NCBI GenBank assembly: GCA_964407685.1
Contig: CAYOWI010000003.1
Location: 1,681-65,680, forward strand
From: an uncultured Muribaculaceae bacterium
GTDB taxonomy: Bacteria; Bacillota_I; Bacilli_A; RF39; UBA660
Direction: 5' to 3'
Length of the DNA stretch: 64,000 bases
Positions 29,591 to 42,731 of the stretch are shown here, piece after piece (the stretch's first letter is position 1; the number at the start of each line of letters is the position of its first letter). Under the pieces are notes generated by a model. That model was given only the letters and a program-made list of their open reading frames with translations, ran no database searches and was not told where the DNA came from. Made by a program: the position numbers and the translations under genes.

Positions 29591-29667
29591 TGGTGACGCG
29601 TATGGGATTTGAACCCATGAATGCCGCCGTGAAAGGGCGGTGTGTTAAACCACTTCACCAACGCGCC
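29591..29667 (-). tRNA. tRNA-Glu (UUC)
   Basis: Hand-folded cloverleaf. Acceptor GGCGCGU/ACGCGUC, anticodon arm CCGCC-CUUUCAC-GGCGG, T-loop GGTTCAAAT, encoded CCA. Confidence 0.9.
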
Positions 29668-29682
29668 AGTTTAAATATAAAA

Positions 29683-29759
<77 letters not shown>

Positions 29760-29933
29760 ATTTCATAATACTGGTAAAACTGACTATTTAATTCTACTAT
29801 ATAAAAATTAAAAATGCAATATATTTTTTAATTTTTTTATAATTTTAGTGCAACTGAAACAAAATATGTGTCGAAATTATTGATTAAACTACTAATTAAA
29901 CGCATCATACACTTTAAAGAAAGGATGGTTATA

Positions 29934-30848
29934 ATGACTACAGACATAATTGGGATTCCTAAAGGTCTTTTATATTATCAGTACGAAACTTTATGGAAAG
30001 AATTTTTTAATAATTTAAATATTAAATATATAACTAGTGGTGAAAGCAATTTTAAAATACTAAACGATGGTAAAAATAAATGCGTCGATGAGGCCTGTCT
30101 TTCTTTAAAAATATTTATTGGCCACGTTGAAGCCTTGAAAGACAAATGTAATTACGTACTTATTCCAAGAATTTATTCAATAGAAAAACATGAACAAGTA
30201 TGTACCAATTTTAATTGCCTATATGATTTAGTCAGAAACTTATACCCTAACTTAAAAATAATTAATTATAACGTTGATGTAAAACATAATGTAACTGAAA
30301 AAAAAGCCTTTTTAAAGTTAGGAAAAAAATTAGGTTTTAATAAGAAAACAGTTTTAAACGCATATGAAAACGCAAAGATAAAAGAACAAAAAAATATTTC
30401 AAGCAAAGAATTATCTGGCAAGAAAAAATTATCTTCAAATAAAAAAAAGATATTATTACTAGGACATCCATACAATTTAAAAGACTCCCTTATTGGTAAA
30501 GTGGTTAGCGAGTATCTTCATAAAAATAACATTGAAATTATTTATAGCTATGAATTACCACAAAAATGCATAAAAGATTATAGCAGTAAAATATCTCCAA
30601 GAGTACATTGGACAATGAACAAAGAATTACTTGCCTCTTTTATGTACTATAAAGAAAAAGTGGATGGCGTAATTTTAATAACATCCTTCCCTTGCGGGCC
30701 AGATTCTCTTACAAATGAAATGATCCTAAGAAAAAAAGGTAAAATCAACGTATTGTTACTTACCTTTGAAGAGCTATCTAGTGACGTTGCAATAATAACT
30801 AGACTTGAAAGTTTTCTAGATATGATAAAAGGAGGTATTAATTCATGA
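29934..30848 (+). CDS. Acyl-CoA dehydratase activase-related protein (DUF2229-like), subunit 1
   Basis: IGIPKGLLYYQYETLWKEFF and the PCGPDS motif are typical of the uncharacterised partner domain of BcrAD/BadFG activases. SD precedes ATG 29934. Confidence 0.65.
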   Translation: MTTDIIGIPKGLLYYQYETLWKEFFNNLNIKYITSGESNFKILNDGKNKCVDEACLSLKIFIGHVEALKDKCNYVLIPRIYSIEKHEQVCTNFNCLYDLVRNLYPNLKIINYNVDVKHNVTEKKAFLKLGKKLGFNKKTVLNAYENAKIKEQKNISSKELSGKKKLSSNKKKILLLGHPYNLKDSLIGKVVSEYLHKNNIEIIYSYELPQKCIKDYSSKISPRVHWTMNKELLASFMYYKEKVDGVILITSFPCGPDSLTNEMILRKKGKINVLLLTFEELSSDVAIITRLESFLDMIKGGINS

Positions 30849-31915
30849 AGCAAATAATAAGTTTTCCACACCTAGGTGATTACTATCATCCAATTAGCAA
30901 ACTTGTAAAAAATCTAACTAATTTAGAAGTATTACAAGCACCACCAATAACTAAAAAAACCATTTTTTTAGGAAGTAAACACAGTCCAGATTCCGTGTGC
31001 GTTCCGTTTAAATATAACTTAGGAAATTTTATTGAAGCTTTAGATAACGGAGCAAATATATTATTACAAGCAGGTGGTGGATGTAGGTACCGTTATTATG
31101 CGGAAGTTCAAGAAACAATATTAAAAGATTTAGGATACGATTTTAAGTTTATACAAATAATCGGAAAGGATCATTTTAGATTAAAAGAATTATTCACAAT
31201 ATTTAAAAGTCTAAATCCTAATCTCTTAAAAAGAAAATTTTTCCATGAACTATTAATGGCGTTTTTTTACATAAAATACCTAGATAACATAGATAGTATA
31301 ATAAGAAGCAGAATTGGATTTGAAAAAAAAGAGGGATCTTTTGCTAAATTGAAAGAAGAATTTCTTAATTGTTGTGATAAAACAAATAGTATCTTTAAAT
31401 TGAAGATTATGTACGTAAAATATAAACATAAATTTAAGAAGGTCCCTATTAGTAAACCAAAAGATAGGATAAAAGTAGGTATCATCGGAGAATTGTATAC
31501 CGCGATGGAGCCTTTTTCAACTTATGAACTCGAAAAAATGCTAGCTAAATATCATATTGAAGTTAAAAAGTTTACTAATCTTACTTATTTACTATGGAAA
31601 AAAGCCTTATTACTTCCCTATCTTAAATGGAAAAGTAAAAAATACTGTAAATATACTTTAGGAGCTGATGGACTTGACAATGTATATCGAGTTCTATGGC
31701 TAAAAAAACATCATTACGATGGAATAATACATACTAAACCTACTGGTTGTACACCAGAAATTGGCGCAATGCCAATTATTATGAAGGCTGCCTCGGATAA
31801 CAAAATTCCAATTATTTTCTTATCGTTTGATGAACAAACAAGTAATGAAGGTCTAAAAACTAGAATTGAGGCTTTTTATGATCTTATAAAAGCCAGAAAG
31901 GAAAAGAAGAAATGA
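30845..31915 (+). CDS. Activase-related protein (DUF2229-like), subunit 2
   Basis: Translationally coupled by a 4-nt overlap. Motifs SPDSVCVPFK and GCTPEIGAMP parallel subunit 1. Confidence 0.65.
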   Translation: MKQIISFPHLGDYYHPISKLVKNLTNLEVLQAPPITKKTIFLGSKHSPDSVCVPFKYNLGNFIEALDNGANILLQAGGGCRYRYYAEVQETILKDLGYDFKFIQIIGKDHFRLKELFTIFKSLNPNLLKRKFFHELLMAFFYIKYLDNIDSIIRSRIGFEKKEGSFAKLKEEFLNCCDKTNSIFKLKIMYVKYKHKFKKVPISKPKDRIKVGIIGELYTAMEPFSTYELEKMLAKYHIEVKKFTNLTYLLWKKALLLPYLKWKSKKYCKYTLGADGLDNVYRVLWLKKHHYDGIIHTKPTGCTPEIGAMPIIMKAASDNKIPIIFLSFDEQTSNEGLKTRIEAFYDLIKARKEKKK

Positions 31916-32862
31916 ACGGATATTTAGGCATAGACATAGGATCAATATCCACTAAAGGAGTTATAATTGATGAAGAAAAAAATATGATAGCAAGTACGTA
32001 TCTTTGGACAGAAGGTAATCCTCTCGAAGCAGTTAAAAAGGTTTTAAATGATTTAAAAAAACAAATAAGTGGTAAAAACATCAATGTTATGGGGGTTGGA
32101 ACGACTGGTTCGGCCAGAAAATTAATAGGAATCATGATTGGAGCTACCAGCATAAAAAATGAAATAACCGCGCATGCCATAGGAACCTTATCACTGCATC
32201 CTTCAGTTAAAACAATAATAGAAATTGGAGGTCAGGACTCTAAAATAATATTATTGGAAGATGGTATCGTTACCGATTATGCCATGAATACCTTATGCGC
32301 CGCGGGTACTGGGAGTTTTCTTACAAGCCAATCGAAAAGATTAGGAGTTGACGTAGAAGAGTTTGGAAAAATTGCTCTGCAAAGTAAACGTCCAACAAAC
32401 ATAGCAGCAAGGTGTACCGTATTTGCCGAAAGCGACTTGGTTCATAAAATACAAATGGGTTATCAAAGGGAGGATATTATAGCAGGGCTATGTAATAGTG
32501 TTGCATCAAATTATCTAAATAATGTTGCTAAGGGTAAAAAAATAAAAGAACCAATCATTTTTCAAGGTGGCGTAAGTAAAAATGTAGGAGTTAAAAAAGC
32601 TTTTGAAAAAATACTCAAATCACAAATAATAACTGACGAAAACGGTCACCTTATGGGAGCATTTGGGAGTGCCATTTTATCTATGAATAAAAAACTTGAA
32701 AAACCATTTAATTTTGAAGTTTCCAATAGTAATTTTGAAACAAAAGGAATAGAATGTAATGGTTGTCCTAATCATTGTGAGATAATTGTCGTTAAAAAAG
32801 ATGGAAAAAAGTTAGATTCTTGGGGTAATAGATGTGAAAAAGGAAAAGTGACAACAAAATAA
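31912..32862 (+). CDS. BcrAD/BadFG-family (HgdC-like) ASKHA ATPase activase with a C-terminal Cys cluster
   Basis: Motifs GIDIGSISTKGV, GVGTTGSA, EIGGQDSK, CAAGTGSF; C-terminus CNGCPNHC...C. Confidence 0.85.
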   Translation: MNGYLGIDIGSISTKGVIIDEEKNMIASTYLWTEGNPLEAVKKVLNDLKKQISGKNINVMGVGTTGSARKLIGIMIGATSIKNEITAHAIGTLSLHPSVKTIIEIGGQDSKIILLEDGIVTDYAMNTLCAAGTGSFLTSQSKRLGVDVEEFGKIALQSKRPTNIAARCTVFAESDLVHKIQMGYQREDIIAGLCNSVASNYLNNVAKGKKIKEPIIFQGGVSKNVGVKKAFEKILKSQIITDENGHLMGAFGSAILSMNKKLEKPFNFEVSNSNFETKGIECNGCPNHCEIIVVKKDGKKLDSWGNRCEKGKVTTK

Positions 32863-32880
32863 TCATGTTGCCACTTTTTA

Positions 32881-33548
32881 TTAAATAATAAACTCGTTAT
32901 AATTAGTAACTTTACCATTTATCATAAACATATATTCTCTATTTAAATATTGGGCTGCTTTCTTTGGAATTAACACGGCTTTATTCCAATTTTTAAGAAT
33001 GTGTTTATCAAAATCTTCATTGGTTAAATAATTTACAATCAAATAATTATTATTTATTTTAATATCTACCCTTTTAATTTTTTGAATTTCCTTGTTCATT
33101 TTATCCTGAATACTAGAATCTTTTGTTCTATGAAATGTTACGTCTAATTTATCCGCAAGTACTAATGATAAACCTATTAGTGTTTGTATGTTATCACCAT
33201 TAGAATGATCCTTAATTGCTTGCTCTAATATAATTAATTCATCTTTTTTAAAATCAGCTGGATTAAGGTACTTTTTAAAAATCCTGCTACTTTCTAAGGC
33301 ATGATCTACTTTATTTCCTTTACATAATCCTATGTCATGAAGTAAAGCTGCTACCATTCCAAGCTCAATCGTTCTTTTATCAACACCAAGTTGTGATAAA
33401 ATAATTTGTACATAATTAGCAACCCTTTTATAATGGCCTAATCCGTGCTCCCAATCCCATTTGCCATCATAATAAATTTTATATTTTCTATTTTTTTAAC
33501 AATGGTCAAATAGTTTTCATTATTTAACAAGTTTTCATATATGTTCAT
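32881..33548 (-). pseudogene. HD-domain phosphohydrolase, frameshifted at an A7 run
   Basis: ATG 33548 opens MNIYENLLNNENYLTIVKK, then the frame stops. The rest (..YYDGKWDWEHGLGHYKRVANY...AALLHDIGL...) is in another frame and joins track ORF 32881..33357. One extra A in the A7 run (T7 on the plus strand, 33491-33497) restores a single ORF. Confidence 0.75.
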
Positions 33549-33571
33549 AACTATACCTCTTATGTAATTTA

Positions 33572-33595
33572 AAACCGAGCTTTTAGGCTCGGTTT
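33572..33595 (-). terminator. Hairpin downstream of tRNA-Ala
   Basis: AAACCGAGC-ttttag-GCTCGGTTT, a perfect 9-bp stem. Confidence 0.45.
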
Positions 33596-33604
33596 ATTTA
33601 CAAA

Positions 33605-33681
33605 TGGTGGAGCTTAAGGGATTCGAACCCTTGACCTCCTCGGTGCAAGCGAGGCGCTCTAGCCAGCTGAGCTAAAGCCCC
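33605..33681 (-). tRNA. tRNA-Ala (UGC)
   Basis: GGGGCTTTAGCTCAGCTGG... with the G3:U70 identity pair; anticodon arm CCUCG-CUUGCAC-CGAGG; encoded CCA. Confidence 0.9.
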
Positions 33682-34796: not shown

Positions 34797-34873
<77 letters not shown>

Positions 34874-34925: not shown

Positions 34926-35166
34926 CTTCGGAAAACAATTGTCATAATTTCAAACTCTCTTTGTTTTTTCTAAAAGCCTTATTTTATTTATAAAAAAGGC
35001 TTCTTTTTTTTACTTATTTTTTTAAACTTTTGGAGTTTTTGAAACCTTTTTTCTAAATATCGCGACAAATTCGCGAATTTAAATTTAAAATTTCTATCCT
35101 AATACTTAGAAGCCTTTTTATAATTAAATTATAACATAACTCTTCCTCTTAATACAATTGCAAACA

Positions 35167-36936
35167 TCATTTTATAGAGCATAATATAAATTCAGAACCA
35201 TACATTTCTTCTTGTTCCTCTAACCAATCAAATACATTATCTAAACTAACATTTGATATATTTATACTCTTAAATATCGGATATCTATTATCAATATAAT
35301 CCTTTATTAAAGAATATTTATAATCATTCTTATCATCTGAATTAACAGCAAAATTTAGCAATTCATTTATTTCATTAGTAGATGTAAATTTGACTCTTGT
35401 ATATAATGAAAGCATTTGATTAAATCCTACTTTTTGTTCTCTATTCGTATTATAGTATTTATCAAAAATCGACACTGCATCCTCTTTTTTATCCTTATTA
35501 GAATGAGTATAATGAAATGTTGTAGTTAACTGAGAGTGTCCCATTAGGCGTTTAACATCAGCAGGGGCTAAGTTAGGATTTTCATTCATTTGAATTGTAC
35601 AATAACTATGTCTCAACCCATGTAGAGAAACATTTTTTATATATGGATATTTTTTTCTGAAATCTAACCATTTACTACTAGGTGTATCAGGAAACATAAT
35701 ACCTCCAGTTTTACTTAAAAATAAATTTTTTGGAGGTATATAACCTTTAATTTTTCTTTTAAATCTAGTTATTATTCTTAAACGTAGTTTTAAATATTCC
35801 TTAATAACTTCTGTACAGAAAATTGGAATAGGAATATCACGGACACTGCCTTTTGTTTTAGTTTCCTTCTCTATTACTTTACGTTTTTTTTCGTCCCATA
35901 CAACTGCCCTTCTAATACTAATAACATTATTATTAAAATCTATATCATCAGTATGAAGTCCGATTAATTCTCCTCGTCTTACACCAGTGCATATCGCAAT
36001 AGTAAACAAAGTTTCAGTTAAAATATCTTCAGTTTTTAATAGTTCTAATACTTCTAATAATTCCTCCCTATTATAAGATAATTTTTCTTCTTTAGATACA
36101 CCTGGTGCTTTAACCTTTAAAACTGGATTCTTTTCTATATAGTCCCATTCTTGTGCTTTATTTAATATCTTTCTCAACAAACAATAAATATTATTTATTG
36201 TTGATAATGATAACTTAACTTTATTACCATTTTTATCTGGTCTTAAACTATATTTTTCTTTAAGTGAATTAACTATTCTTTGAACTGTTAATACGCTTAT
36301 TTTATCTAAATATACATTTGCAAGTTCAGGAAGTATATAATTTTTCAAATCTACTTTTCCACTCCTTACTGTTGTAGGGCTAAGTTCCTTTTCTGCATAT
36401 TCTTTATAATAAATTCTTGCAAAATCAATAAACTTAATATTCCTACTATTATTTTTCTTTAACTTTAATTCTGCTAATTTTTTATCTCTTTCCTTTCTTG
36501 ATTGTGCTAATGTTCCCTCAAATACTGCAGAATAATAATCTCCTTTTTTTCCATTAGAGCCTCCTTTTCTAATGAATATTCTATATTTCTTTCCTTTTTC
36601 AATTTCATATATATATTTATCAACTTTTTTTGTATTTGTTATAGTTGTTTTATTATTTGGCTTCTTTGGTTTGTTATTTACTTTCTTAGATTTATCTTTA
36701 TTATAATCTTCCAAAATACAAGTAATTTCACTCTTTTTTTCTAAAAATAAACCATTTTCCTCTAACTTCTTATCTCTTAAAAATATAGCATCTTCAAGTG
36801 ATCCATCTATATATTGATCAAAGTTAATTCTTTTATTGTTTTTTTTATCAACTTTTAAAAATTTAACTCTATATTTATCTTCAGATACATAATAAATATA
36901 TTTTTCTACTCTTTCTTGCATAATTTCTCCGTTCAA
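35167..36936 (-). CDS. int: Tyrosine recombinase/integrase (589 aa, extended N-terminus)
   Basis: Catalytic-domain signatures TGVRRGEL (Arg), HGLRHSYCT, GHSQLTTTFHYTH (His/Tyr). Confidence 0.9.
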   Translation of the reverse strand: MNGEIMQERVEKYIYYVSEDKYRVKFLKVDKKNNKRINFDQYIDGSLEDAIFLRDKKLEENGLFLEKKSEITCILEDYNKDKSKKVNNKPKKPNNKTTITNTKKVDKYIYEIEKGKKYRIFIRKGGSNGKKGDYYSAVFEGTLAQSRKERDKKLAELKLKKNNSRNIKFIDFARIYYKEYAEKELSPTTVRSGKVDLKNYILPELANVYLDKISVLTVQRIVNSLKEKYSLRPDKNGNKVKLSLSTINNIYCLLRKILNKAQEWDYIEKNPVLKVKAPGVSKEEKLSYNREELLEVLELLKTEDILTETLFTIAICTGVRRGELIGLHTDDIDFNNNVISIRRAVVWDEKKRKVIEKETKTKGSVRDIPIPIFCTEVIKEYLKLRLRIITRFKRKIKGYIPPKNLFLSKTGGIMFPDTPSSKWLDFRKKYPYIKNVSLHGLRHSYCTIQMNENPNLAPADVKRLMGHSQLTTTFHYTHSNKDKKEDAVSIFDKYYNTNREQKVGFNQMLSLYTRVKFTSTNEINELLNFAVNSDDKNDYKYSLIKDYIDNRYPIFKSINISNVSLDNVFDWLEEQEEMYGSEFILCSIK

Positions 36937-37256
36937 ATATTGTATTTAATTCTTTCATTTTTTGTCTTAGTTTCTTTATCTAACCATTTATCAATTTCTT
37001 CTTTATTAAACATTCTTCTATTTCCAATAAAAAAGTAAGGTAAGTTATCTTTTTCTATTGCTTTATTTATGTTATATCTAGTAAAAAAAGGATATTTCTC
37101 TATCAGTTCATCTATTGTATAAAGAATTTTATGGTTTTCGTTATTGATTTTTTTTCTATCTTCTTTTTCATCTTCAGAGCGATCAATAAGTATTAAAACT
37201 AATTCTTTTAACGTCATATTCTTTAAAGTTCTATAAAGATCATTCTCCCTTGTCAT
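36933..37256 (-). CDS. xis: Excisionase-type HTH DNA-binding protein
   Basis: YTIDELIEKYPFFTRYNINKAIEKDNLPYFFIGNRRMFNKEEIDKWL (MerR/HTH_17 excisionase pattern). A 4-nt overlap with int. Confidence 0.75.
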   Translation of the reverse strand: MTRENDLYRTLKNMTLKELVLILIDRSEDEKEDRKKINNENHKILYTIDELIEKYPFFTRYNINKAIEKDNLPYFFIGNRRMFNKEEIDKWLDKETKTKNERIKYNI

Positions 37257-37873
37257 CCAAAAAAATCATCCTTTCTATTTATTTTTAATTCATATTCACA
37301 TATTCTATTTTTTAGATTTATTGGTCTACTATTACTTTCCAAAATATCTTTTTTGGTTTTTGAAAAATCTGAACACCAATATATTGCATCAAGCTCATTA
37401 TTAAATGTTTCTGATTCAACTTTATTTCTATACTGTCTTACTGATTTGTATTTATTTTTAAAATGGCAATAATAATTATTAAAAAAGATTCTATTGATAT
37501 TTTTCGATTCATCATAAATTTTCAAAAAATCCCCAATTGAAACTTTAAAAACAATCGGAAATATCCCATCATCAAATATTTTTATTACATTTGTATCTAT
37601 ACTAAAAAAGTCATAATTTTTTTTGTAACATTCCATTATATTTTTAGAATAGATATTTCCACATTTAGGTTTTAAAATAAAACTCATTTCATCATTCGTT
37701 CTTATCAAGTACCAAACTTCATTAAAATCATTATCTATAATTTCATATATTTTTCTTATTACATTAGATTTGTGTAACTCCTTAAGTTCCTTCTCCCATA
37801 TAGTAGGAACTTTACTTATTCCAAAATAATAACTCCACATTACTTCAATTTCTCTTTTTTCCATCTTTATCAC
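37253..37873 (-). CDS. Hypothetical protein (206 aa)
   Basis: ORF coupled to xis by a 4-nt overlap; no motif recognised. Confidence 0.5.
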   Translation of the reverse strand: MIKMEKREIEVMWSYYFGISKVPTIWEKELKELHKSNVIRKIYEIIDNDFNEVWYLIRTNDEMSFILKPKCGNIYSKNIMECYKKNYDFFSIDTNVIKIFDDGIFPIVFKVSIGDFLKIYDESKNINRIFFNNYYCHFKNKYKSVRQYRNKVESETFNNELDAIYWCSDFSKTKKDILESNSRPINLKNRICEYELKINRKDDFFG

Positions 37874-37982
37874 TCCTAATTTTCAAAGTAAGTAATGCAA
37901 TTTATATTTTTATTAAAAAAGGAATCGCATTACAGAAACATAATACTAATTCCATTTCTTTTTTACGAATGTGTAAAATCGT

Positions 37983-38198
37983 TTATTTACCAATTTTTAT
38001 AGATTTGACTTTTTTTATTTTTTTAGCTTTATATTTAAATTCATAAGAACCATCAAAAATGAAGTTTATATCTTTATTACTATTACTATAATTTTTTAGT
38101 AAAGATTTAACTTTTTTTAATGCGTCTTTTTTGCAAGATGCATTTACCATCATATTTGTACTTTGAATAAATTTAACGTTCACTAAATAATTCTTCAT
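37983..38198 (-). CDS. Small hypothetical protein (71 aa), tandem paralog B
   Basis: MKNYLVNVKF...; shares its N-terminal pattern and length with the upstream gene; 4-nt overlap. Confidence 0.45.
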   Translation of the reverse strand: MKNYLVNVKFIQSTNMMVNASCKKDALKKVKSLLKNYSNSNKDINFIFDGSYEFKYKAKKIKKVKSIKIGK

Positions 38199-38419
38199 GC
38201 ACTCACCTTAATAAACTGAATAGATAAATTTTCTTTTTTCTTTGATCTTAGTTCTTCCTTTTGAAGTCTGTATTTTATATTATTACTATTATTAATATTT
38301 AAAATAACATTATTTTCGATCATGTCTTTTACCATGTTAATGGCTGATAGCTCATCATTAGCTATTACTTTAAAATTAATATTCTTACATAATCTAACTT
38401 TTATATTAAAATTTTTCAT
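38195..38419 (-). CDS. Small hypothetical protein (74 aa), tandem paralog A
   Basis: MKNFNIKVRL...INFKVIANDELSAINMVKDMI; the pattern is similar to paralog B. Confidence 0.45.
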   Translation of the reverse strand: MKNFNIKVRLCKNINFKVIANDELSAINMVKDMIENNVILNINNSNNIKYRLQKEELRSKKKENLSIQFIKVSA

Positions 38420-38575
38420 TACAAAATTTCCTTTCTTTTATTTTTATATTGTAATTAATGAGGGTTTTAGTTTACCCACAACTCCCGTGCTAATAGGGAT
38501 TGACTACCTAGCTTTTTTTAAGTGCTAACATATCGGTGATTTTTAACACTGCCAAATTGTCAAAGATCAACCTGT

Positions 38576-38615
38576 AAAAAAAACAGGTAAAAGGAAATAA
38601 TATCCTCTCACCTGT
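38576..38615 (-). terminator. Rho-independent terminator after sigma-like gene 1
   Basis: ACAGGU(38615-38610)...ACCUGU(38588-38583) followed by U7 on the minus strand. Confidence 0.55.
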
Positions 38616-38645
38616 TTCCTCACTAATAAGCACTTTTACGAAGTC

Positions 38646-39116
38646 TTATTTTAAAGTTTCTTTTAATTTTTTTAATGCAATATTTAAAGTGTATTGAATT
38701 GATCTAATATCTACATTTTCTTCATCTGCTATTTGTTTCTGTGTCATATCTTCAAAATAATACTTTTTAATTCTCCTTTTTTGTATTTCTGGAAGTAAAT
38801 CTATCGCTTTCTTTAAATCTTCAAAAGTAGATTTCTGAATGACATAATCTTCTAATCCAATAGACTTATTCAATGCTCTTGCTTCAAGATTATTTTCAGT
38901 TAGTTCAGAATGTTCAATATGACGATCAAATTCATTCATTTCACATATATCATCAAGTTCAAATCCATCCATAACATTAAAAACCACTTCACTTACGTCC
39001 ACCATTCTTAAAATTCCCATACCGTCTTTAAATAAAACTCTAAAGCTATCCTTATCGTCTATATACTCCAATGTATAAGGATTATCATTCTTTTTACGCC
39101 TTTTTGGTCTTTTCAT
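38646..39116 (-). CDS. ICE sigma-70 region-4-like HTH regulator, copy 1 (156 aa)
   Basis: C-terminal region-4 pattern LPEIQKRRIKKYYFEDMTQKQIADEENVDIRSIQYTL..ALKKL. N-terminal RRKKNDNPY and HIEHSELTENNL motifs are typical of the sigma-like proteins of Tn1549/CTn-type ICEs. Confidence 0.7.
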   Translation of the reverse strand: MKRPKRRKKNDNPYTLEYIDDKDSFRVLFKDGMGILRMVDVSEVVFNVMDGFELDDICEMNEFDRHIEHSELTENNLEARALNKSIGLEDYVIQKSTFEDLKKAIDLLPEIQKRRIKKYYFEDMTQKQIADEENVDIRSIQYTLNIALKKLKETLK

Positions 39117-39123
39117 TTGCTAT

Positions 39124-39154
39124 CCTTTCTATTGATTTATTTCAATAGAAAAGG
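39124..39154 (-). promoter_or_regulatory. SD-sequestering hairpin upstream of sigma-like gene 1
   Basis: Minus-strand RNA CCUUUUCUAUUGA-aauaaa-UCAAUAGAAAGG (12 bp plus 1 bulge). The 3' arm contains the SD GAAAGG, 7 nt before ATG 39116. Confidence 0.5.
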
Positions 39155-39181
39155 TGGCCCTCTAGAAAAATAAAAAGGTAC

Positions 39182-39225
39182 AAAAAAAATCCCAGATGGG
39201 ATATTACTAATATCACACCCAGGAT
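39182..39225 (-). terminator. Intrinsic terminator inside the leader of sigma-like gene 1
   Basis: A 16-bp stem (AUCCUGGGUGUGAUAUU-agu-AAUAUCCCAUCUGGGAU, with 3 G-U pairs and 1 mismatch) followed by U8. It lies 27 nt upstream of the SD hairpin. Confidence 0.55.
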
Positions 39226-39407
39226 TTAAAGTTAAAAATACAAATAAAAACCAAAACCCACTAATCATAGCAGCACACCCCATCAATGCCACAACAATTT
39301 ACTGCAATAGTAAAAGTGTTTAGATGTACTGCTAAATATCTAATCCTTATACCTAAAAAATATTATAATTTCCTATTATAAAAGCATTGTCTCCTTTTTT
39401 GCTTGCT

Positions 39408-39436
39408 ATTATATATTTTTATGGTATAAATGTAAA
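39408..39436 (-). promoter_or_regulatory. SigmaA-type promoter for the sigma-like gene 1 leader
   Basis: Minus strand TTTACA(39436-39431)-17 nt-TATAAT(39413-39408). Confidence 0.5.
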
Positions 39437-39513
39437 TGAGAATTTTCTAATATAAAAAAACAACACAAATATAATATTTAAATTATATTTCTTTTTCAAG
39501 TTTAAAATAATAT

Positions 39514-39542
39514 AAAAAAATCTGGTTAAAAATTTAACCAGA
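39514..39542 (-). terminator. Rho-independent terminator of the 39574..39906 gene
   Basis: UCUGGUUAAA/UUUAACCAGA stem followed by U7 on the minus strand. Confidence 0.6.
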
Positions 39543-39573
39543 TTAATCCTATATTGCATATAATTAATTTTAT

Positions 39574-39906
39574 TTAACAATCATTATTTTTTTCAATATT
39601 CTCTCTAACCTTTTCTAGTACTTGATAGTAATCAATTTCTTCTATAATATTACTGGTATATAGCAAGAATTGAGAAATAATATCAATTGCTTCATTTATA
39701 TATAATCTTACATCTATTTCTATATCATTATTAATATTCCTTGGTACACTATACCTTAATAATTTTTCCTTAGTTAACTTTGCTAAATCTCTTTCATTTT
39801 CATCAATTTGCTTTTCAATATTTTTTGTTAATACACCTATTAAATTATTATATTCTTTTTTATTTAACATTAATTTTATTGGTGGTATTCTCTTTGAATA
39901 TGCCAT
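39574..39906 (-). CDS. Hypothetical protein (110 aa)
   Basis: ORF between the two sigma-like genes, with its own terminator. Confidence 0.45.
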   Translation of the reverse strand: MAYSKRIPPIKLMLNKKEYNNLIGVLTKNIEKQIDENERDLAKLTKEKLLRYSVPRNINNDIEIDVRLYINEAIDIISQFLLYTSNIIEEIDYYQVLEKVRENIEKNNDC

Positions 39907-40010
39907 TTTTTATTCTCCTTTTCCGATCAATTTGTTGTGTAACTTTTAGCCATATTTTTTTAAATATAATTATATTTTTGCATTATAGGATAAAAGAGAA
40001 AAAATCCCTT

Positions 40011-40529
40011 TCACTTATTTCCCCACTCATAAAAGAAATTGCAGACACTTTTTTTATTTTTTAATATTTTTTTTAAATTTTTCTTAGCCCTCTCTAAAAT
40101 AATATGTACTGATTGATGAGTACTATTTTCTTCTTTAGCAATTTCAATTTCGTTTTTACCTTCAAAATAATATTTTTTTATTCTTCTCTTTTGAATAATA
40201 GGTAGTTTTTCAATAGCCATATATAGTTCGGAAAAAGCTATTTCTTTAATAACTTGTTCTTCTACACTTTCAACTTTATAATTTGTTCTTTTATATAATC
40301 TCTCATCGTCTAATTCAGAATGCTCTATATGTCTTTCATATTCATGCATTTGTGATATATCAATTAATTCAAAACTATTAAATGCATTATAAACTTCTTC
40401 ACTTATCTCAACTGTTTTATTTTCTTTAATACCATTATTAAAAGAAATAATATATATTTTCTCATTTTTATTATATTGTAATATATAAGGATTATCTCTA
40501 TCCTTTCTTCTTTTTGGATGATTATCCAT
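40011..40529 (-). CDS. ICE sigma-70 region-4-like HTH regulator, copy 2 (172 aa)
   Basis: Paralog of 38646..39116. Shared motifs RRKDRDNPY, ERHIEHSELDDERL, LPIIQKRRIKKYYFEGKNEIEIAKEENSTHQSVHIIL.RAKKNL. Confidence 0.7.
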   Translation of the reverse strand: MDNHPKRRKDRDNPYILQYNKNEKIYIISFNNGIKENKTVEISEEVYNAFNSFELIDISQMHEYERHIEHSELDDERLYKRTNYKVESVEEQVIKEIAFSELYMAIEKLPIIQKRRIKKYYFEGKNEIEIAKEENSTHQSVHIILERAKKNLKKILKNKKSVCNFFYEWGNK

Positions 40530-40534
40530 TTTTT

Positions 40535-40571
40535 CCTCCTATCAATAATTTTTTTAATTATTGATAGGAGG
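40535..40571 (-). promoter_or_regulatory. Perfect 16-bp SD-sequestering hairpin (or operator) upstream of sigma-like gene 2
   Basis: Minus-strand RNA CCUCCUAUCAAUAAUU-aaaaa-AAUUAUUGAUAGGAGG-aaaaa-AUG. The SD AGGAGG is fully paired with the anti-SD CCUCCU. Confidence 0.55.
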
Positions 40572-40597
40572 CGAACGTTCCTTCATCAAAGTGTATG

Positions 40598-40650
40598 AAA
40601 AAAGACTATATTTCATATTTTTTTTAAAACGAAATATAGTCTTTTTTAAT
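40598..40650 (-). terminator. Intrinsic terminator in the leader of sigma-like gene 2
   Basis: AAGACUAUAUUUC/GAAAUAUAGUCUU stem (40598-40647) followed by U6 on the minus strand. It lies 26 nt upstream of the SD hairpin. Confidence 0.55.
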
Positions 40651-40907
40651 TTAATATCAAATAATATTATTATTAGAAAAAAGTAGTATTTCATATTTCG
40701 CAATCCTCAAAATTGCAAATACCATAATTATTGGTAGAGAAAATACTACTTTAGATTCAGTCCAATAAGCATAACTTGTAATATATAACTGAAGAAAGAA
40801 TTTACTTCTATACTACTTATATTAATACTAATTATTACTTAATTTTTAAAACAATGCTACTTACTTTCCCCCATATATAATACATGCATAGGCATTGCTA
40901 CTCCTAC

Positions 40908-40935
40908 ATTATACTACAAAATTCTACATAATCAA
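40908..40935 (-). promoter_or_regulatory. SigmaA-type promoter immediately after the holin stop codon
   Basis: Minus strand TTGATT(40935-40930)-16 nt-TATAAT(40913-40908). Confidence 0.45.
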
Positions 40936-40941
40936 TTAAAT

Positions 40942-41346
40942 TCAGTTATTTTTATCACTCTCTTCAGAATTTAACTTTTCTAATGATTTATATAGAGCTT
41001 TTGGTATTTTTATTCCCATTTCACTACCATTTTCTAAAATAGAAAGCATTTCATTAAAAATAAATGATATTATTACTAATGTTCTTAATCCGCCATTTAT
41101 ATTAAGTAATTGATCTAATAAAACTGATAATGCAATTATACATAAATAGGCAACTTTCTTTATAATTCCTTTAGCACCAATACTACTATTTACCTTATTT
41201 TGAATAAAAGACTTACAAACACCAGTTATATAATCTAGCAACATTAACGCAAGTATTGTTTTTAATAAAAAATCAAAATCACCAAACAAAAATACGAAAA
41301 AAGTTCCAATAGCACTGCTTAATTTAATAATAATACTTTTCATCAT
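40942..41346 (-). CDS. Holin, phage_holin_4_1 (toxin-secretion/phage-lysis, TcdE-type) family
   Basis: Three TM segments. Family pattern LLDYITGVCKSF...NSSIGAKGIIKKVAYL...LLDQ...FIFNEMLSILENGSEMGIKIP. SD AGGAGA precedes ATGATG at 41346/41343. Confidence 0.85.
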   Translation of the reverse strand: MMKSIIIKLSSAIGTFFVFLFGDFDFLLKTILALMLLDYITGVCKSFIQNKVNSSIGAKGIIKKVAYLCIIALSVLLDQLLNINGGLRTLVIISFIFNEMLSILENGSEMGIKIPKALYKSLEKLNSEESDKNN

Positions 41347-41437
41347 ATCATCTCCTTTCAACAATAAATAAAATTTTAAAATTAAATATACATCTAATAT
41401 TTTATTATTACATACATTAACAAATCATATTTCAACA

Positions 41438-42031
41438 TTAAATTTCTAAAATTTGTCCTGGCTTAATTAAATTAGGATTTTCTCCAATAATAGCTTTATT
41501 TTTTTCATAAATTTTATTCCATGTAGTTTCAAATTTTTCTGCTATATCGTATAATGTATCCCCATAAACAACTTTATATCTTATATTTCCTTTTGTTTTA
41601 TTTGGTTGATAATCATAACTATGTGGGTCTTGGTAGTTATCCCCATCACTATCTTTCATTCCTAAATGTAAGTGGATTCCAGTTGCTTTTCCAGTCATAC
41701 CGGTATATCCTAATATGGTTTCTTCATCCACTTTTTCTCCAGTTTTAACACAAATACTATCTAAATGATAGTGTAAAAGTTTTTTATTAATTCTCGGATA
41801 ATTAACCCAAACAAACTTGGCACCATCACTTGCAATCCCACAGCTAATTATTACCCCATCTTCTAATGCATATTGTGGCCATTTTTCTCTATTAGTACCA
41901 TAATCACAACCATAATGATATTTACCAGTAATACCATTTCTTGTAATAATGCTTTTTCTATTTCCGAATGATGATGTTACATACCAATCGTCTCTTTTAA
42001 AGATTTTACTTGCTAATTTCAATTTAATCAC
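41438..42031 (-). CDS. M23 (LytM) metallopeptidase plus C-terminal LysM, no signal peptide
   Basis: HxxxD (HYGCDYG) and HxH (HLHLG) zinc motifs. LysM YKVVYGDTLYDIAEKF...IKPGQILEI. The N-terminus is hydrophilic. Confidence 0.85.
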   Translation of the reverse strand: MIKLKLASKIFKRDDWYVTSSFGNRKSIITRNGITGKYHYGCDYGTNREKWPQYALEDGVIISCGIASDGAKFVWVNYPRINKKLLHYHLDSICVKTGEKVDEETILGYTGMTGKATGIHLHLGMKDSDGDNYQDPHSYDYQPNKTKGNIRYKVVYGDTLYDIAEKFETTWNKIYEKNKAIIGENPNLIKPGQILEI

Positions 42032-42096
42032 CTCTTATCTCTTATTTTAATAATCAAAAAAATCAAATCATAAAACTCTTTTTCAACATTAGCAAT

Positions 42097-42138
42097 ATAA
42101 AAAAAGAGGAATGCATTATTATCAAAATGCATTCCTCT
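42097..42138 (-). terminator. Strong rho-independent terminator after the lipoprotein gene
   Basis: Perfect 13-bp stem AGAGGAATGCATT/AATGCATTCCTCT (42105-42138) followed by U7 on the minus strand. Confidence 0.7.
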
Positions 42139-42161
42139 TTTATAATTTTCTATGGTAATAA

Positions 42162-42731
42162 TTAAGTTTCTACTTCACAAATGGTAGATTCTAAAGAGCA
42201 TTTTACATATTTAATTTCACCAGAGAAATCACCTTTTTCTCCTTCGAAATATATATAACCATTTTGTATTTTATAAATTCTAGCGTTGTATAAATTTACT
42301 TTTGTAGTTAAATCCCTTCTCTGAGTATTTATTCCATCTAAAGTATACTCGTAGATTTTACCACCAGAGCACCTAGAAATATATAATTTATTACCTGAAA
42401 AATAAGTATATTTTTCAGAACTATAAGCATTTGCATTACAAGACTCGTATTCATCTATTTTAATATAATCATTTTCTTTAACTTTCATAAATATACCATC
42501 TTTTATCATTTCACTACCCTCTTGAGAAATATCAGTAACAATATAAATTTCTTTTTCTTTTGTCTTATCACTTATAGTTTCATAAACCATAGATTTAATG
42601 TCTCTATTTTTTAAATCATAATGCTTAATATTTGCATATCTATTTTTATTACATCCAAAAACACAAAAAGTTAAAATAAAAATTAAAATCGCTTTTTTCA
42701 CACATATCACCATAATCATTATATCATACAA
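42162..42731 (-). CDS. Lipoprotein (candidate immunity/accessory protein)
   Basis: Signal peptide KKAILIFILTFCVFGC with a lipobox Cys. It starts 20 nt after the 747-aa gene. Confidence 0.65.
   Translation of the reverse strand: MYDIMIMVICVKKAILIFILTFCVFGCNKNRYANIKHYDLKNRDIKSMVYETISDKTKEKEIYIVTDISQEGSEMIKDGIFMKVKENDYIKIDEYESCNANAYSSEKYTYFSGNKLYISRCSGGKIYEYTLDGINTQRRDLTTKVNLYNARIYKIQNGYIYFEGEKGDFSGEIKYVKCSLESTICEVET

Follow-up and report, generated by a model that had tools for sequence, protein, structure and literature searches.

Results

Two sigma-like genes of a conjugative element lie behind small open reading frames

The stretch of DNA analysed here, referred to as the window, comprises 64,000 nucleotides (nt) of contig CAYOWI010000003.1, assigned to an uncultured Muribaculaceae bacterium; it is low in GC (~27%), and its minus strand from ~35.2 kb to the window end is an integrative conjugative element (ICE). 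The ICE encodes two sigma-like regulators, 45% identical to each other, and the RNA leaders that precede the two genes are the subject of this work. Each leader contains an upstream open reading frame (uORF) that carries an R-x-P-P motif near its C terminus, overlaps an intrinsic-terminator-like hairpin, and runs into a second hairpin in which the Shine-Dalgarno sequence (SD) of the sigma-like gene is paired. In the order of transcription, the features of leader 1 are as follows.

39436-39408, minus strand: promoter-like site, TTTACA-17-TATAAT, 11/12 match
39334-39268, minus strand: stem in the 5' untranslated region (5'UTR), in which AGCAGUACAUCUA (39334-39322) pairs with the uORF1 SD region GGGUGUGCUGCUA (39280-39268), in both the minimum free energy and the centroid fold
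39268-39137, minus strand: uORF1, ATG 39268, 43 codons (MISGFWFLFVFLTLNPGCDISNIPSGIFFVPFYFSRGPPFLLK; MISGFWFLFV...FSRGPPFLLK, stop)
39227-39187 (stem) and 39189-39182 (U8), minus strand: intrinsic-terminator-like hairpin with its U-tract, inside uORF1
39163-39152, minus strand: R-G-P-P motif of uORF1, AGA GGG CCA CCT
39153-39124, minus strand: SD hairpin of 12 base pairs (bp), in which CUUUUCUAUUGA (39153-39142) pairs with UCAAUAGAAAGG (39135-39124)
38646-39116, minus strand: sigma-like gene 1, 156 amino acids, ATG 39116

The corresponding features of leader 2 are:

40935-40908, minus strand: promoter, TTGATT-16-TATAAT with an upstream TG, which aligns with a promoter conserved across the family
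40752-40680, minus strand: outer stem, in which AAAGUAGUAUUUU (40752-40740) pairs with AAAUACUACUUU (40691-40680)
40694-40554, minus strand: uORF2, ATG 40694, 46 codons (MKYYFFLIIILFDIKLKKTIFRFKKNMKYSLFSYTLMKERSPPINN; MKYYFFLII...MKERSPPINN, stop)
40647-40598, minus strand: terminator-like hairpin with U6, inside uORF2; ΔG -19.6 kcal/mol, z = -8.1
40577-40566, minus strand: R-S-P-P motif of uORF2, CGT TCG CCT CCT
40571-40535, minus strand: SD hairpin, a perfect 16 bp in which CCUCC pairs with GGAGG; ΔG -22.4 kcal/mol, z = -8.4
40011-40529, minus strand: sigma-like gene 2, 172 amino acids, ATG 40529

The first-pass annotation of this DNA had described leader 1 as a promoter, a hairpin followed by eight U residues, a gap of 27 nt and a hairpin holding the only SD of the gene, and all of these lie where it had placed them and exceed chance expectation. 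The terminator-like stem has 18 pairs with one internal mismatch (ΔG -17.8 kcal/mol, z = -4.2, 0/200 shuffles), and 27 nt separate its U-tract from the SD hairpin (ΔG -14.5 kcal/mol, z = -3.6), the 3' arm of which is the sole SD-like purine run before ATG 39116. The anti-SD, which is the 5' arm of the SD hairpin, overlaps the second Pro codon of the R-G-P-P motif and the codons after it. The order and spacing of these elements recur before the paralogue at 40529, as the annotation had also said and as sequence and folding now confirm, the spacer between the terminator-like hairpin and the SD hairpin being 26 nt in leader 2. When folding was compared with that of 200 dinucleotide shuffles, all four window hairpins surpassed their shuffles (z -3.6 to -8.4, with 0/200 as good). 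Both leaders were unusually structured over their whole length (z -3.7 and -6.7 for leaders 1 and 2, respectively). Terminator-like sites are enriched in the region (6 found versus 0.9 expected). The promoter-like site of leader 1 is the best in 35000-42500, where such sites as a class show no enrichment (61 found versus 60.5 expected), and it has no homology to the conserved family promoter.

Two statements of the annotation require revision. The ~285 nt leader before gene 1 had been described as untranslated; 132 nt of it (39268-39137) are a conserved small open reading frame, uORF1, with its own SD (GGGG, 39281-39278) and with its stop codon (TAA, 39139-39137) in the loop of the SD hairpin. 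uORF2 is organised in the same manner, with the SD GAGGA at 40708-40704 and the stop TAA at 40556-40554, again in the hairpin loop. The two leaders had been called not obviously alignable, which has to be qualified in that they share a recognisable element, namely the uORF with its R-x-P-P motif. When all six frames of the window are translated, R[SGAD]PP turns up at 39163 and 40577 and nowhere else, and the 17,658 residues of window open reading frames of at least 100 amino acids do not contain it.

Conservation of the hairpins and of their register

The sigma-like family has 838 database relatives, and a scan of one genome per species gave 80 loci (given L numbers below), mostly from gut metagenome-assembled genomes of Bacilli, Clostridia and 'Tenericutes', which reduce to 56 distinct upstream regions from gut Bacillota genomes. 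Essentially all 56 have the SD-sequestering hairpin. For analysis of covariation, 46 distinct sequences were aligned with MAFFT and folded with RNAalifold, with 500 shuffles and slid alignments as controls; a 14-pair helix was recovered, with compensatory double changes at 10 of the 14 pairs and with 96% of cells paired, versus 81% in shuffles and 30-51% in the slid controls. None of the 500 shuffles reached any of five measures. Two of the pairs are U-G in 18 and 24 of the 46 sequences, and this abundance of wobble pairs implies that the structure is strand-specific, i.e. that it is one of RNA of this strand; a DNA palindrome or operator at this site is excluded on the same grounds.

The loops and stems of the terminator-like hairpins are too divergent for reliable MAFFT alignment and were assessed by per-sequence folding against a background control. 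A terminator-like hairpin with a U-tract lies inside the uORF in 56/56 leaders (median ΔG -22 kcal/mol), whereas hairpins satisfying the same thresholds were found in 15 of 418 (3.6%) random sense-strand control windows of the same loci. Its stem sequences are unrelated between lineages, and it is located 17-57 nt 5' of the SD hairpin region, its distance to the motif likewise varying, from 17 to 57 nt; in the general layout, the motif comes 7-13 codons after the terminator. Both stems predicted by the annotation are thus conserved in homologous elements, the one by covariation and the other by recurrence in every leader.

Measured from the first Pro codon, the start of the SD helix falls between -2 and +4 nt in 54/56 leaders; in the alignment, the first paired base is the one that opens the second Pro codon. 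The parser of helix boundaries is crude, with loop sizes inflated by stray outer pairs, and only the distribution of offsets and the classes of stop location were used from it. The anti-SD arm, made up of the second Pro codon and the next 10-15 nt, is 12-17 nt long, and the distance from the first Pro codon to the regulator ATG is 37-57 nt (median 51). The uORF stop, by comparison, may lie in the loop, in the 3' arm or past the sigma start codon; since the helix start is constant while the stop position and the terminator distance vary, the register that is fixed is that of the motif to the helix. The leader most closely related to leader 1 is that of L001 (protein 82% identical), which retains the promoter, the 5'UTR and the uORF start, but at L001 3846-3990 the RGPP is destroyed (...LGHRLFY, stop) and the sigma-like gene ATG is also gone, such that this copy appears to be decaying; the combined loss is in line with the mechanism proposed below.

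The coding signature of the uORFs

All homologues carry a uORF, of ~37-72 codons, most of them with their own SD; most start at an ATG preceded by GGAG or GGAGG at the right distance. Among 55 distinct leaders, the median open length is 62 codons in the frame of the motif versus 8 and 4 in the other two frames, and the motif frame stays open for at least 40 codons in 53/55. R-x-P-P is present in 54/56 distinct leaders, the other two reading KSPP and HSPP. The residue x is Ser in 36, Gly in 12, Asp in 5 and Ala in 2, and Cys precedes the Arg in 48/55 leaders (TGT in 33, TGC in 15). The codons for these residues turn over: Arg is encoded by AGA (37), CGT (16) or AGG (1), and the motif Ser by AGT, AGC, TCG, TCT or TCA, i.e. 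by five codons of both Ser codon families. Thus, the Cys-Arg-Ser-Pro-Pro block is written as TGT-AGA-AGT-CCA-CC, TGY-CGT-AGY-CCA-CC or TGT-CGT-TCG-CCT-CC, and in one locus as TGT-AGG-TCA-CCA-CC. The C-R-x codons lie outside the paired helix (alignment A2, columns 1-12).

Elsewhere the uORF peptides are poorly conserved, with a mean column identity of 20%; the exceptions are R-P-P, a Phe that mirrors the U-tract and an N-terminal Tyr-Tyr. They have no Pfam or NCBIfam match, and the 49 that are called as proteins in a database of 5.8 billion proteins are all unnamed. Judged by eye, the N terminus is hydrophobic in some (uORF1, uORF2, L041, L076) and charged and soluble in many (L004, L016, L078), examples of non-hydrophobic peptides being MIVDDDEYYELN... 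and MDRRYYSPKKEN....

Conserved elements 5' of the uORF

Leader 2 and most homologues share a promoter, TTGACAAATTTnGCA...TGTCGTATAATG. Just 3' of its -10 element is a box, TAGCAATGCC, which is found at 40880-40905 in the window and in most homologues (alignment A3, columns ~225-300) and which is at the position of a DNA operator or of the extreme 5' end of the RNA; leader 1 is without it. The box is followed by an AGCAGUA... hairpin, terminator-like in L027, and then by an outer stem, GUAGUAUUU/AAAUACUAC, the 3' arm of which is formed by the K-Y-Y codons of the uORF. The outer stem encloses an inner hairpin (GGCAUUGAC...GGAG...UGCC) that holds the SD and ATG of the uORF itself. In leader 2, AAAUACUACUUU corresponds to the codons K-Y-Y-F of uORF2, and the stem encloses the SD and ATG of uORF2; the 5'UTR stem of leader 1 is a diverged counterpart of the outer and inner stems of the homologues, around the uORF ribosome-binding site. 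In L078 both sides of the outer stem are altered together (GCAGUAUUC/GAAUACUGC), a compensatory change. A second copy of AAAUACUAC, 3' of the terminator, was found in the L027 group only.

The location of the uORF SD and ATG within conserved stems implies that initiation on the uORF is probably itself regulated, and these stems are a place at which an input could act. Two other candidate explanations of conserved positions were rejected. The conserved Tyr-Tyr might have represented regulatory codons; K-Y-Y is, however, the 3' arm of the conserved stem with GUAGUAUUU, and L078 changes both sides of it. A GGUG/CACC mini-hairpin, considered for the conserved TGTAGAAGTCCA, occurs only in a subset of leaders (L027, L039, L013, L003 and others) and is absent from those of the CGT type.

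Genomic setting

The genes of the ICE encode a MobA/VirD2 relaxase, a VirD4-type coupling protein, a VirB4-like ATPase and a CHAP hydrolase; its other genes include a holin, an M23/LysM peptidase, the two sigma-like genes, an HTH_17 excisionase-like (xis-like) gene and a tyrosine integrase (int) gene. The placement of the regulators upstream of xis and int on such an element, proposed at first pass, is borne out by this gene content. The features at the integrase end are:

36933-37256, minus strand: xis-like HTH_17 gene, presumed output module
35167-36936, minus strand: tyrosine integrase gene, presumed output module
34797-34873: tRNA-Pro(CGG), adjoining the integrase end of the ICE

The tRNA-Pro(CGG) gene is the likely integration site of the element. 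Genes for tRNAs Ala, Ile and Glu lie farther out, within 29591-33681.

In the sigma-like regulators, region 4 of sigma-70 is the only part detectable (PF08281/PF04545; TIGR02937 positions 85-165; region 4 of FliA/SigE in the PDB); the N-terminal half, with the motifs RPKRRKxxDNPY and HIEHSE, has no match to anything. The gene appears to have been duplicated along with its leader. Between the two copies there is an open reading frame of 110 amino acids (39574-39906), with its own terminator (39544-39519) and no family match. Between sigma-like gene 1 and xis, at 37983-38419, there are two paralogous small open reading frames of 74 and 71 amino acids (MKNFNIKV... and MKNYLVNVKF...), which resemble small open reading frames that flank the pemK toxin gene in L023 (MKRKNYRVKV... 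and MKEKNYIVNI...).

The gene order uORF, sigma-like gene, xis, int is the same in L023 as in the window. In 12/12 homologous loci scanned, a pemK RNA (Rfam RF02913, 49-65 bits) lies 210-260 nt 3' of the sigma-like gene (L053 4682-4762, L027 3624-3704, L023 4729-4809 and nine further loci); in L023 it is followed by a small open reading frame, a PemK/MazF-like toxin gene, xis and int. The window element has neither the pemK RNA motif (37200-41000) nor a PemK/MazF-like toxin. With gathering or E-value thresholds, Rfam matched neither leaders 1 and 2 nor any of 12 homologous leaders, its only hits being tRNAs and the pemK RNA of the homologues.

Related designs beside tetracycline-resistance genes and in Tn916

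The same design of uORF and hairpin is present just 3' of tet(O)/tet(40) on an Enterococcus faecalis plasmid (L081, ~2670-2866) and on a Streptococcus suis element (L082, 2674-2870). The two elements are distant relatives, and their downstream protein is barely alignable with that of the window (E = 0.13). Each has three tandem genes resembling sigma region 4, the first of which is preceded by a uORF, an in-frame hairpin with a U-tract and an SD hairpin. The uORF ends in ...RCRSPPLHL and overlaps the hairpin CCUCUCCAUCUGGAUUUUU/AAAAAUUCAGAUUGGAGG. L081 and L082 differ by three synonymous third-position changes only, within C-R-S, the motif of these distant, GC-richer elements being CGC/CGT-TCC/TCT-CCG-CCT. 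Before the second tandem gene (L082 3383-3476) there is a strong terminator (AGCCCCCU.../...AGGGGGCU) with a U-tract, then an SD hairpin (CCUCUCAAUCA/UGAUUGGAGG), and no R-x-P-P uORF, i.e. a version of the architecture that lacks the motif.

In a Tn916-type element in pCF10 (L083 2290-2500), the SD of orf7, GAAAGGGGG, lies in a hairpin (CUCACUUCCUUUC/GAAAGGGGGUGAG), with a terminator-like hairpin and U-tract ~150 nt upstream. An overlapping open reading frame reads ...ATNPPFT..., its Pro-Pro codons starting another hairpin. We considered the orf7 leader as a member of the R-x-P-P class and rejected it, for the reading is T-N-P-P, with no Arg. Similarity of the sigma-like regulators to Orf7 is confined to 31 residues of region 4.

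Discussion

A proposed leader-peptide mechanism

Comparative sequence analysis defines all the parts of the device, i.e. their existence, conservation, coding signature, geometry and register, and leads us to propose that each sigma-like gene is preceded by a leader-peptide riboregulator, which probably works as follows. When no ribosome follows close behind RNA polymerase, the terminator would form and the transcript would end within the uORF; in any mRNA that is read through in this OFF state, the SD would remain paired. When a ribosome translating the uORF is near RNA polymerase, it would cover the 5' arm of the terminator, and transcription would go on. At R-x-P-P the same ribosome would then arrest, its P site occupied by Pro and its A site by Pro-tRNA, as with RAPP/RGPP peptides; its footprint would cover the anti-SD arm, and the SD and start codon, 20-35 nt farther 3', would be freed for translation of the sigma-like regulator, which in turn would drive the downstream xis-int module and thus ICE excision. 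The arrest, read-through, SD unmasking and output in this scheme are modelled on work on RAPP/RGPP peptides, SecM, MifM, ErmCL, pyrBI and Tn916 tet(M).

The footprint of a ribosome extends roughly 13-16 nt 3' of the P site, so that a ribosome stalled at the first Pro codon would cover nearly the whole anti-SD arm and leave the SD and ATG accessible. R-x-P-P arrest is not relieved by EF-P, and it occurs when the third codon occupies the P site and the fourth the A site (PMC12992588); for uORF1 this register predicts a stall in which the P site holds CCA (39157-39155) and the A site CCU (39154-39152). RAPP and RGPP are robust arrest motifs, with RSPP and RDPP being partial (Fujiwara et al. 2025, PMC12992588). 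The Arg is irreplaceable, whereas Gly is a full substitute for the Ala and Ser, Asp or Pro a partial one, as are Glu and Val in ApdP (PMC12992588). Few tetrapeptides are as under-represented as RGPP, RAPP, RDPP and RSPP, most notably in Bacillota, and RAPP/RGPP uORFs have been reported to be absent from many Gram-positive bacteria, including Bacillota (PMC12992588).

The two-layer control envisaged at first pass thus survives in part: the terminator and the SD-occluding hairpin are real and conserved, while its factor-based scheme with an untranslated leader is not supported, and the antiterminating factor that it had left unspecified is most economically the ribosome translating the uORF, with no separate trans-acting factor. 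As to what is sensed, translation status, antibiotics and a factor acting on the 5'UTR stems are candidate inputs, and the adjacency of distant members to tet(O)/tet(40) is a hint of a drug link.

Several observations weigh against the proposed mechanism. Constitutive arrest alone does not account for what is sensed, and no release mechanism is evident, there being no general N-terminal signal or transmembrane segment among the uORFs as judged by eye. Ribosome-coupled antitermination requires tight coupling of transcription and translation, and such coupling is reportedly weak in Bacillus subtilis. The leaders show no antiterminator pairing that is conserved; the start codons of some uORFs are uncertain, with the SD being weak or absent in L022, L043 and L079. 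Poor conservation of the upstream peptide means that tunnel contacts that might strengthen arrest cannot be assessed by comparison of these sequences. Most members carry RSPP, which is only partly arrest-competent in the ApdA and ApdP contexts (PMC12992588).

Alternative explanations

Four other accounts of the conserved elements were weighed against the leader-peptide mechanism. In plain translational coupling without programmed arrest, any ribosome that reads the uORF through the anti-SD arm would open the hairpin for a short time, and Pro-Pro would mirror the CCNCC of an anti-SD or give a short, EF-P-sensitive pause. Such coupling would explain the need for translation and why the second Pro codon belongs to the anti-SD; it would also suit the uORF stops, many of which fall in the loop or overlap the sigma start as they do in coupled gene pairs, and it accords with the partial arrest competence of RSPP. 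We nevertheless regard it as unlikely, since the need for an anti-SD extends to the second CCN only and leaves the first Pro, the invariant Arg and the preceding Cys unexplained; moreover, the stop position varies while the register of motif to helix is fixed, and the residues at x, i.e. Ser, Gly, Asp and Ala, are all among the few that permit arrest. It is less probable still that the leader is untranslated and that a trans-acting factor, be it an RNA-binding protein, a small RNA or a small ligand, brings about antitermination, with a separate event opening the SD hairpin. Both RNA elements are conserved, as such a scheme would require, and the TAGCAATGCC box, the AGCAGUA hairpin and the GUAGUAUUU/AAAUACUAC stem could bind a factor, but this account does not explain the long open frame (median 62 codons), the SD and ATG upstream of it, or the synonymous turnover that maintains C-R-S/G-P-P outside the helix, and no Rfam riboswitch or leader family matches.

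We consider it very improbable that the uORF is an independent gene for a small protein (a type I toxin-like, anti-sigma or signalling peptide) with its own terminator, the SD hairpin being a separate brake or a stabiliser of the mRNA. The hydrophobic N termini of uORF1, uORF2 and some homologues, the long-range stems that bury the ribosome-binding site of the uORF, a feature also of type I toxin mRNAs, and the calling of 49 such peptides as proteins in public data are in line with this possibility; on the other hand, the terminator is within the open reading frame, 5' of the conserved C-terminal motif, such that terminated transcripts would have no stop codon, and the peptide is barely conserved outside R-P-P, is not hydrophobic in many members and matches no Pfam or NCBIfam family. 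Comparably little credence is given to the proposal that the terminator is mainly an insulator of the kind of T1 in Tn916, stopping transcripts that arrive from cargo or conjugation genes upstream, with the hairpin acting as an RNA thermometer or as a palindromic DNA operator. Insulating terminators are used by Tn916 (PMC11658703), and a scan of leader 2 lists no terminator-like site between the holin stop (40942) and the hairpin in the uORF, although the latter hairpin is unlisted too. The wobble pairs of the SD helix (18-24 of 46 sequences, at two pairs) would, however, be A-C mismatches on the other strand and in the symmetry of a DNA duplex. The SD stems have stabilities of -15 to -30 kcal/mol, which would be too stable for an RNA thermometer. 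An insulating role is compatible with the uORF-based mechanism and does not replace it.

Relationship to known systems

The closest comparators among arrest peptides are ApdA, ApdP, the related ApcA, and SecM (Sakiyama 2021, Morici 2024, Fujiwara 2024 and 2025). As in the ApdA/ApdP class, a small open reading frame with an R-(A/G/S/D)-P-P core near its C terminus is directly upstream of the regulated gene, a Pro/Pro stall is predicted, the downstream SD is in a stem-loop that a stalled ribosome could open, and the motif is otherwise avoided in the proteome. The differences from that class are that the host is a mobile element of low-GC Bacillota, that the target is a sigma-like ICE regulator rather than a Sec/YidC component or a copper-related protein, that RSPP predominates with Cys before the Arg, and that an intrinsic terminator is embedded in the uORF. 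There is also no general signal peptide or transmembrane segment for force-dependent release, so the force-release logic of the known RAPP monitoring substrates does not apply; sensing of the Sec/YidC type was rejected because a hydrophobic N-terminal segment is not general.

With regard to attenuation, Tn916 tet(M) is controlled by leader-peptide-dependent transcription attenuation, and in CTnDOT leader-peptide-dependent unmasking of the tetQ ribosome-binding site controls ICE excision (PMC5812530). The Tn916 parallel drawn at first pass is apt, as is that with the CTnDOT leader peptide. As in the tet(M) leader (orf12; Su, He and Clewell 1992) and pyrBI, a short leader open reading frame overlaps an intrinsic terminator, and a ribosome keeping pace with RNA polymerase would prevent termination; the ICE setting and an output that feeds xis/int regulators are further likenesses to tet(M). 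Unlike in Tn916, where a resistance gene carries the device, here it precedes the regulator gene itself and is joined to an arrest motif and an SD hairpin; in addition, neither antiterminator pairing nor a run of rare or regulatory codons was found in the leaders or their uORFs. With ermC/ErmCL, cat and the CTnDOT tetQ-rteA-rteB operon our leaders share a leader peptide and a hairpin that occludes the downstream ribosome-binding site, which the ribosome stalled on the peptide remodels in those systems and would remodel here. Stalling in the latter systems, however, needs an antibiotic, whereas the motif here is of the intrinsically arresting R-x-P-P type, the sequence of which does not imply dependence on a drug. 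Like orf7/orf8 of Tn916, the regulated genes encode proteins with sigma-70 region 4 just upstream of xis-int. The leader device is covered by no Rfam, Pfam or NCBIfam family or paper that we found, and our literature search gave no paper that links arrest peptides to conjugative elements or mentions this motif; it represents a variant of known control by arrest peptides and attenuation.

Implications for conjugative elements of Bacillota

A broader reading, which we advance tentatively and hold as possible rather than probable, is that the leaders are members of a widespread and previously undescribed class of R-x-P-P arrest-peptide riboregulators on mobile elements of Bacillota, from ICEs of gut commensals to the tet(O)/tet(40) elements of Streptococcus suis and Enterococcus faecalis, in which one ribosome would first antiterminate a terminator embedded in the frame that it reads and then, once arrested, unmask the SD of the master regulator of excision. 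If the leader-peptide mechanism is correct, it would carry RAPP-like arrest peptides into low-GC Bacillota, onto mobile elements and in front of a target unrelated to protein localisation, and it would provide a case in which a single uORF combines arrest with intrinsic termination. The conserved small open reading frame and its leader are currently missed by annotation pipelines and by Rfam. The triggers of excision are poorly understood in most Gram-positive ICEs; under the broader reading, mobilisation would depend directly on the state of translation in the host, and possibly on ribosome-targeting antibiotics. If the leader-peptide mechanism holds, a self-contained, ribosome-sensing switch, testable through point mutations in a five-codon motif, would gate excision across a large family of gut Bacillota ICEs, and relatives beside tetracycline-resistance genes would be gated in the same way.

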